Below, one piece after another: positions 33,036-33,822 of a DNA stretch of 64,000 nucleotides. Origin of the DNA: Eledone cirrhosa (lineage: Eukaryota). The stretch lies in the NCBI GenBank assembly GCA_964016885.1, contig OZ024747.1, positions 77,004,001-77,068,000 of the forward strand. Direction: 5' to 3'. A program made the position numbers and the translations under genes. Below the pieces are notes generated by a model. The model was not told the origin of the DNA. It saw only the letters and a program-made list of their open reading frames with translations, and ran no database searches. The stretch's first letter is position 1; each line of letters opens with the position of its first letter.

Positions 33036-33822
33036 TATTATTATGTAATAAACAACATAAGGCAATTATTCCATTTACCAGTGGTTTCTTAAAAGCAAAA
33101 GGTTTTGCTTTCAATCCTCAGAATGAAAAAATCCTGGTTTGTTTTGAATTTGGATCTTAAAAAAACAAAAAAAGCAAGCTATATGAAAGTGAGGCTGGAG
33201 AAGGAAGAAGGAAAGGAAAAATAAAATAAGACTACACATACAACCACACATACACGAAAAAACATAAAAGCACACACACACACACACACACACACACACA
33301 CACACACACACACACACACACACACACACGCGCACGCACACACACACACACACACACACACACACACACACACACACACACACACACACACACACACGCA
33401 TACACACACACGTTATTCCGGGTTGAATCGGAGGCAGCCACAGTAAGCAAGGCACTCAGTACACCGCAGTATGTGTGTGTGTGTGTGTGTGTGTGTGTGT
33501 GTGTGTGTGTGTGTGTGTGTGTGTGTGTGTGTGTGTGTGTGTGTGTGTGTGTGTGTGTGTGTGTGTGTGTGTGTGTGTGTGTGTGCTTTTATGTTTTTTC
33601 GTGTATGTGTGGTTGTATGTGTAGTCTTATTTTATTTTTCCTTTCCTTCTTCCTTCTCCAGCCTCACTTTCATATAGCTTGCTTTTTTTGTTTTTTTAAG
33701 ATCCAAATTCAATAAACAAACCAGGATTTTTTCATTCTGAGGATTGAAAGCAAAACCTTTTGCTTTTAAGAAACCACTGGTAAATGGAATAATTGCCTTA
33801 TGTTGTTTATTACATAATAATA
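33036..33822. repeat. Long inverted repeat with a 60-bp pLTR (P2) tail as spacer
   Basis: Unique arms 33036-33271 and 33585-33822 differ by one 2-nt indel; (CA)n/(TG)n form the inner arms; spacer 33411-33470 matches 35342-35400. Confidence 0.95.

Follow-up and report, generated by a model that had tools for sequence, protein, structure and literature searches.

Head-to-head inverted pLTRs are a standard arrangement in PLEs and are read as products of self-priming in the available text of two reports (PMC3846280; PMC8557442). For R2, snap-back junctions that copy the cDNA or, less often, nearby rDNA are described in the accessible parts of PMC11371274 and PMC11331408; the corresponding part of PMC2718515 contains no mention of snap-back. 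The L1 study 10.1101/2024.12.14.628481, in its accessible sections, reports two local inverted duplications that arise at the reciprocal end and not at the RT end, together with fold-backs that contain the insert. Double-strand breaks in yeast produce fold-back inverted duplications that are mostly 5-34 bp long, according to excerpts of PMC11724301. In the running text of open-access papers we found no account of a PLE stub enclosed by a long duplication of its primer-side flank.

The locus described here is a passive palindrome of ~350 bp with a loop of ~65 nt rather than a mobile unit. By analogy, it would extend the known head-to-head PLE junction and match both R2 snap-back onto target DNA and the fold-backs associated with L1. 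With PLE inverted pLTRs it shares a 5'-truncated element with an inverted copy, a palindromic junction, a microsatellite target and a pLTR hammerhead; whereas the PLE cases, as far as those reports describe them (PMC3846280; PMC8557442), invert the element or captured internal segments, here ~350 bp of flank is inverted and the element forms the loop. As in R2 snap-back during PRINT, a cDNA 3' end would prime on the cDNA or on nearby target before joining, and the 5' junction characteristic of that route, a cDNA end followed by the reverse complement of nearby target DNA, is present; the locus probably works like a snap-back junction. The R2 data, in the portions available, concern engineered rDNA insertions in human cells observed in short reads, unlike the present natural, assembled locus, where the repeat is PLE-like and the copied flank is long. 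Common to L1 are a retro-insertion, a local inverted duplication primed by short microhomology and RT-end fold-backs that hold the insert; however, the L1 RT-end fold-backs in the accessible text are large somatic rearrangements, while the duplication at the RT end here is 350 bp long and locally resolved. An L1-type reciprocal-end origin, as defined in that text (10.1101/2024.12.14.628481), was not found, the duplicated arm being the one attached to the 3' end of the element. Yeast breaks, in the excerpts of PMC11724301, share the sequence of microhomology fold-back, synthesis and end-joining, and differ in their short extent and in proceeding without a retroelement.

Architecture of the palindrome and identity of its tail

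Within the window (the whole 64-kb stretch of DNA analysed), the sequence-only reading had described a host flank duplicated in inverted orientation around a 60-bp pLTR tail, and alignment confirmed the coordinates, orientation and arm-tail-arm layout (Table 1). The unique arms, 235 and 237 bp long, align with 0 mismatches and a single 2-bp gap, and continue inward as (CA)n and (TG)n. That reading's mirrored microsatellite holds as to inversion, but the (TG)n array is no exact copy of its (CA)n counterpart: it has none of the four CG interruptions and measures 16 nt less. A TA dinucleotide separates the tail from (TG)57, and the TAT within the GTATG junction may be P2-derived after a 2-nt gap. 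The left arm is probably the primer-side flank as it stood before the insertion, with the interrupted (CA)n array as the probable target and primer. No direct target-site duplication of at least 3 bp was seen outside the arms; TA is its own complement, and a duplication of it is hence unreadable.

Table 1 Features of the palindrome and of related fold-backs (positions within the window)
Feature	Position	Strand	Remarks
(TA)n/(CA)n block	32940..33035	.	duplicated segment ends here; TRF array 32940-33038
Left arm, unique AT-rich	33036..33270	+	right arm is its sole strong match within the window
Interrupted (CA)n	33271..33411	+	29 units, CGCGCACG, 30 units, CG, CATA, short CA run
P2 tail, 3' 60 nt of a pLTR-like repeat	33410..33469	-	3' end towards (CA)n
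GTATG turn-around junction	33469..33473	+	complementary to CATAC 33399-33403
Pure (TG)57	33472..33585	+	inverted counterpart of the left array, interruptions absent
Right arm	33586..33822	-	inverted copy of 33036-33270 plus 2 extra bases; unique sequence from 33823
Closest P2 relative	35341..35527	-	full ~135-nt unit; type I hammerhead motif at 35425-35475; head-to-head inverted piece, perfect over 54 bp; bordered by (TA)n on both sides
Inverted 5' piece, P2	1893-1966		23/24
Inverted 5' piece, P1	7613-7716		50/52
Inverted 5' piece, P2	35416-35527		54/54
Inverted 5' piece, P3	38993-39368		187/188
SINE-like fold-back	45119..45624	.	5'-truncated after ~128 nt, folded through itself and 122 bp of 3' flank

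A sequencing or assembly artefact, either a fold-back chimera or a microsatellite mis-join, would also yield nearly identical arms, and inverted PLE structures and long microsatellites are known to trouble assemblies (PMC8557442, in its available text). Such an error would need two chimeric junctions, one of them coinciding with the 5' end of a truncated repeat. An indel and the make-up of the arrays set the arms apart, the other palindromes in the window carry 0 to 9 arm mismatches, as real ageing structures would, and the window contains no N bases; we regard an artefact as very improbable.

Copy number of the arms, a check that the sequence-only reading had proposed, could be settled for this one window: an arm 27-mer allowing up to 3 mismatches matched twice, once per arm (0/100 shuffles gave two), which amounts to one locus within 64 kb. 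This observation bears, weakly because it comes from a single window, on the idea that a palindrome or a foldback/MITE existed first and that the P2 tail was later inserted at its centre, the tip of a cruciform. PLEs in the window do favour self-complementary (TA)n, and a TA target duplication is possible, being its own complement. However, the palindrome ends in ordinary AT-rich sequence where a microsatellite begins, no distinct direct duplication is seen there, and the SINE fold-back in Table 1 has the retroposon inside both arms, an arrangement that later insertion cannot make. A pre-existing palindrome is, in our estimation, improbable.

The tail is the 3' end of P2, a ~135-nt repeat found at four loci in the window, and matches 35341-35400 at 53/60 positions and 8219-8271 and 1999-2044 more weakly. 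Our own type I hammerhead descriptor, run on both strands of the 64 kb, gave two matches, both in P2 (8144-8194 and 35425-35475), whose stem I differences are compensatory; it failed on the P2 copy at 1921. The 60-nt tail itself lies outside the hammerhead part of P2. Rfam gave 0 matches across the window at the gathering threshold, hammerhead included, and the P2 hammerhead was absent from MFE folds. Hammerhead motifs mark pLTRs (PMC4209133, in part), and because the motif fixes the sense of the element, the tail is read as minus-strand with its 3' end at (CA)n. All three longer P2 copies (1893-1966, 8144-8278 and 35341-35527) have their start no more than a few bases from stem I of the hammerhead, and in the copy at 35341 the turn-around lies right at the 5' strand of that stem.

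The 3' ends of P2 adjoin (TA)n, (CA)n or (TG)n in 4/4 copies and lie within a few bases of each other, in line with the defined internal RT start of a lizard PLE in vitro (available text of PMC11167929). No ORF adjoins any P2 copy within the window, and the RT/endonuclease-like ORF at 47887-50129, flanked by P3, has no BLAST match to P2. A P2 target-site duplication was not readable in the microsatellite context, and the few P2 copies make a small sample in which to see the two 3' ends that an optional tail extension of 30-40 bp would give. Inverted pieces of the element, 24 and 54 bp long, occur at two of the three other P2 loci. Taken together, P2 behaves as would a pLTR or else some non-autonomous derivative (compare 10.64898/2026.07.22.740005, seen in part), and it likely, though not provably, belongs to the PLEs. 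An exact 24-mer of the tail had 0 matches in GTDB genome contigs, a result that is uninformative for a eukaryotic repeat.

Proposed fold-back at the primer end and its alternatives

Our leading interpretation, held with modest confidence, is that the locus is a retro-insertion scar carrying a fold-back at the primer end, in which we infer truncation and fold-back to be one event. A retro-insertion fold-back scar formed either in this coupled manner or by the two-step variant set out below is likely. The plus strand would be the cDNA strand. As a first step, a DNA 3' end within the (CA)n array would prime reverse transcription of P2 RNA, beginning at the usual 3' end of the family; orientation and junction of this step can be read from the letters, and the enzyme is a presumed one. 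After ~60 nt the new 3' end would turn back on the strand it belongs to and pair with the CATAC of the array, the opposite strand being resected or displaced. A 5-nt GTATG/CATAC microhomology is possible at the junction and would have been used in this step; CATAC occurs in the array only at 33399-33403, the probable landing site, and twice more in the unique arm. A polymerase, either the RT of the element or a host repair polymerase, between which the sequence does not distinguish, would then copy the array, with slippage, followed by 235 nt of unique flank, ~350 nt in all. Copying would end where the template becomes self-complementary (TA)n, and end-joining would link the new end to the far side of the break. 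The (TA)n block at 32940..33035 folds as a single-stranded DNA hairpin (-18.7 kcal/mol) and is a likely stop or hand-over point. In a variant of the same model, replicated sister ends would fuse and then break at (TA)n.

Since the letters behind the tail repeat, in reverse complement, those in front of it, the template would be the primer strand itself or a sister copy. Fold-back on the primer side requires the 3'-attached arm to be the one copied, as observed, and because copying of flank is not templated by element RNA alone, the turn-around would be DNA-templated and follow priming. The sequence-only reading had invoked abortive reverse transcription followed by fold-back; fold-back copying of the primer-side flank is well supported, since the orientation fits, the junction shows microhomology and the window contains sister cases, whereas the 60-nt length as an abortion in the same event is conjectural. 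Besides the age mismatch described below, three points weigh against the coupled model. i) None of the four CG interruptions is present in the right array, so two in-register slips are needed. ii) When 33260-33475 is folded as DNA (z 0.75), no pairing of the cDNA end with the array appears, so priming would need the help of a protein. iii) The precedents differ in extent or place, local fold-back duplications in yeast being mostly 5-34 bp long (PMC11724301) and the two L1 inverted duplications lying at the reciprocal end. Array purity was rejected as an age marker, 5/8 CA/TG arrays of at least 60 bp in the window being pure.

The arrays also bear on a history with the order of the arms reversed, in which the right arm is original and the left arm and (CA)n were copied first from a (TA)n primer, after which synthesis jumped to P2 RNA. 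The right arm passes into unique sequence without a visible seam and has the 2 extra bases, and (TA)n(TG)n compound arrays exist in the window. Nevertheless, DNA copying would have to precede reverse transcription and the new interruptions would have to arise only in the copy, which takes more steps than the coupled model; we give this order very little probability.

The outer boundary at (TA)n, the usual PLE target in the window, finds a simple account if the arm is not local: the tail, (TG)n and arm would have come together in a transcript that read through the 3' end at a donor locus and was inserted where the (TA)n ends, with its cDNA folded back to its own start. No (TA)n remainder is present on the right side and no donor lies within the window, and in vitro the PLE RT start is fixed and internal, whatever 3' sequence is added (PMC11167929, in its available text); transduction of this kind appears quite unlikely. 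Snap-back in cis, sister fusion, a later break in an older copy (below), a pre-existing palindrome, transduction and the reversed arm order would all leave identical letters.

Relative to 35341-35400, the tail differs at 7/60 sites, its 3' 25 nt being identical, and all seven differences are A/T-to-G/C transitions (five A>G and two T>C on the sense strand). At each of the seven sites at least one of two outgroup copies agrees with 35341, and at five sites both do, so the state in the tail is derived. The background of A/T-to-G/C transitions in 17 SINE copies is 28/141 (p about 1e-5, post hoc). Comparing 7/60 substitutions in the tail with 0/235 in the arms gave a Fisher p of about 1e-5, and the tail looks older, or otherwise altered, relative to the arms. 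Because of this age mismatch, the coupled model works only if the seven changes preceded or accompanied insertion or if homogenisation has since acted on the arms.

This gap in divergence is accounted for by the two-step variant, in which a later break, perhaps a renewed cut by a PLE endonuclease, fell 60 nt from the 3' end of an older and longer P2 and ordinary break repair made the fold-back, with reverse transcription neither aborted nor coupled. PLE protein nicks its own pLTR junction in vitro (PMC11167929), and plain breaks also give fold-back inverted duplication (PMC11724301), both according to the accessible text. Yet the bias of the tail (7/7, against 28/141 in the SINE copies) is unlike ageing in the window, and a second event must fall within a 135-bp target. 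We judge the two-step variant unlikely.

Several causes of the tail changes were considered. CpG decay was rejected, with 1/7 in a CpG, and conserved RNA structure was unsupported, tail folds having z between -0.7 and 0.7. ADAR editing of one strand alone was set aside, fitting five of the seven changes and not the two opposite ones. None of the five A>G sites has a 5' G, the neighbour that ADAR disfavours (PMC2873906, in part), and the two T>C changes each lie opposite an A>G in short local palindromes that are too small for hairpins. A GC-richer subfamily, RT misincorporation or both-strand editing may lie behind the changes, as judged from three comparators only. No case of genomic A-to-G hypermutated retro-copies was found in the literature consulted.

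Taken by itself, the single locus is most likely a repair scar. The palindrome also offers a handle on the formation of PLE inverted junctions, described as undefined in the available text of PMC8557442.

Fold-backs and double-stranded RNA potential across the window

A 5' inverted piece is present at 3/4 P2, 1/3 P1 and 1/2 P3 loci, which makes turn-around synthesis routine in the window. In the four pieces of this kind listed in Table 1, copying halted inside the element, and three of them end at (TA)n. P1 is a third short repeat in (TA)n arrays (7537-7716, 32803-32939 and 35913-35967), one copy of which carries a 52-bp head-to-head inverted piece; the hammerhead descriptor gave no match on P1. 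A P3-related solo repeat at 38993-39452 holds a 188-bp head-to-head palindrome, with (TA)n on both sides.

Extension of the fold-back into flank was found at one further retroposon, the SINE at 45119-45624, where the run-through is 121/122 identical. Screening of SINE 5' junctions, by self-BLAST only, placed flank run-through at 1/16 such loci (17 matches of at least 70 bp, two being its arms). The two halves of this SINE differ at 8/128 positions and the flank halves at 1/122 (Fisher p 0.036), with most differences near the turn. We assume that this SINE was mobilised by a non-PLE reverse transcriptase; if so, run-through is not PLE-specific. The case suggests that run-through fold-back may recur in this animal. 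With the SINE case, the event is neither unique nor specific to P2, and it has published precedent in R2 and L1. At 54231-54640, a 38-bp perfect inverted repeat of the 3' part of a SINE variant, its halves set apart by the remaining SINE sequence and an extended (TA)n, may be a further fold-back or an inversion. A MITE-like pair of 43-bp inverted repeats (41/43) with a 62-bp spacer lies at 7795-7942, single in the window.

The duplex of more than 300 bp that the sequence-only reading had anticipated was borne out as a predicted fold. Positions 33020-33840 folded as RNA give -646.5 kcal/mol (z -66.7; 0/20 shuffles equal) with 351 long-range pairs, a predicted long and near-perfect duplex of the kind expected of an ADAR or siRNA substrate. 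A transcript of the palindrome, if made, would be strongly double-stranded.

We scored dsRNA tiles in the window in the manner of PMC5625713, as far as its available text sets it out, asking for at least 38/40 matches in inverted orientation within 2 kb. This yielded 165/2558 tiles, 113 in simple repeats and 52 in other sequence; simple repeats dominate the dsRNA tiles of the window. Five retroposon fold-backs hold 47 of the 52 tiles outside simple repeats, 16 of them in the present palindrome, a retroposon share that is biased upward because the window was picked for this feature. In the accessible portion of PMC5625713, octopus has exceptional dsRNA potential, with near-perfect dsRNA-forming loci at a share of 4.4e-3 for which we found no explanation there; a palindromic repeat is offered as a partial explanation of frog dsRNA potential, and lizard Penelope is heavily edited. 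The palindrome is a handle on the source of this unusually high share in octopus.

A broader reading, which we put forward as speculative and on balance unlikely, joins these observations: retro-insertions of this genome would routinely fold back and run into flank, supplying most of the near-perfect dsRNA potential outside microsatellites, and the clustered A/T-to-G/C changes of the tail would be deamination of the template or of an RNA:cDNA hybrid written into the germline, a loop between PLE palindromes and ADAR. If true, it could help to explain the high dsRNA potential and the reported hyper-editing of octopus.

Other repeats of the window

The window is rich in microsatellites and consists mostly of repeat remnants. 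Pfam was run on 30 proteins, comprising 28 window ORFs (26 of the 72 listed non-low-complexity ORFs and two long low-complexity ORFs) and two homologs; none showed a convincing host-gene domain, and only zf-RVT, in the remnant of a retroelement, matched below E 0.001. For two repeat-encoded proteins, Argonauta hians was the only named animal match (40% identity, one of 19 matches; 58% identity, one of five), which makes an octopod cephalopod a likely source of the DNA.

P3, at 47330-51641, is a near full-length PLE-like element with 535-bp direct repeats that are 99.4% identical. Its ORF with RT and a C-terminal endonuclease-like part has a frameshift in a C run near 49480 and homologs at 32-40% identity. 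Pfam returned 0 families on the P3 ORFs at E 0.001 and at 0.1, and the homolog P0012 alone had sub-threshold GIY-YIG and RVT_1 matches. We take P3 to be a PLE from its architecture and from motifs read by eye; it is a different family from P2. Non-LTR retroelement remnants lie at 9678-10502 (minus), 62082-62915 (plus) and 16124-16558 (plus), one being the zf-RVT C-terminus; the others are presumably two adjacent restriction-endonuclease-like C-termini and an RTE-like tail. Two SINE copies, 5136-5492 and 37982-38340, share ~170 bp beyond the common core at 92% over 360 bp, suggesting a composite repeat. Two minisatellites are highly homogeneous, at 16585-17713 with a 40-bp unit repeated 28 times (97% matches) and at 40600-41623 with a 26-bp unit repeated 39.5 times (95%).
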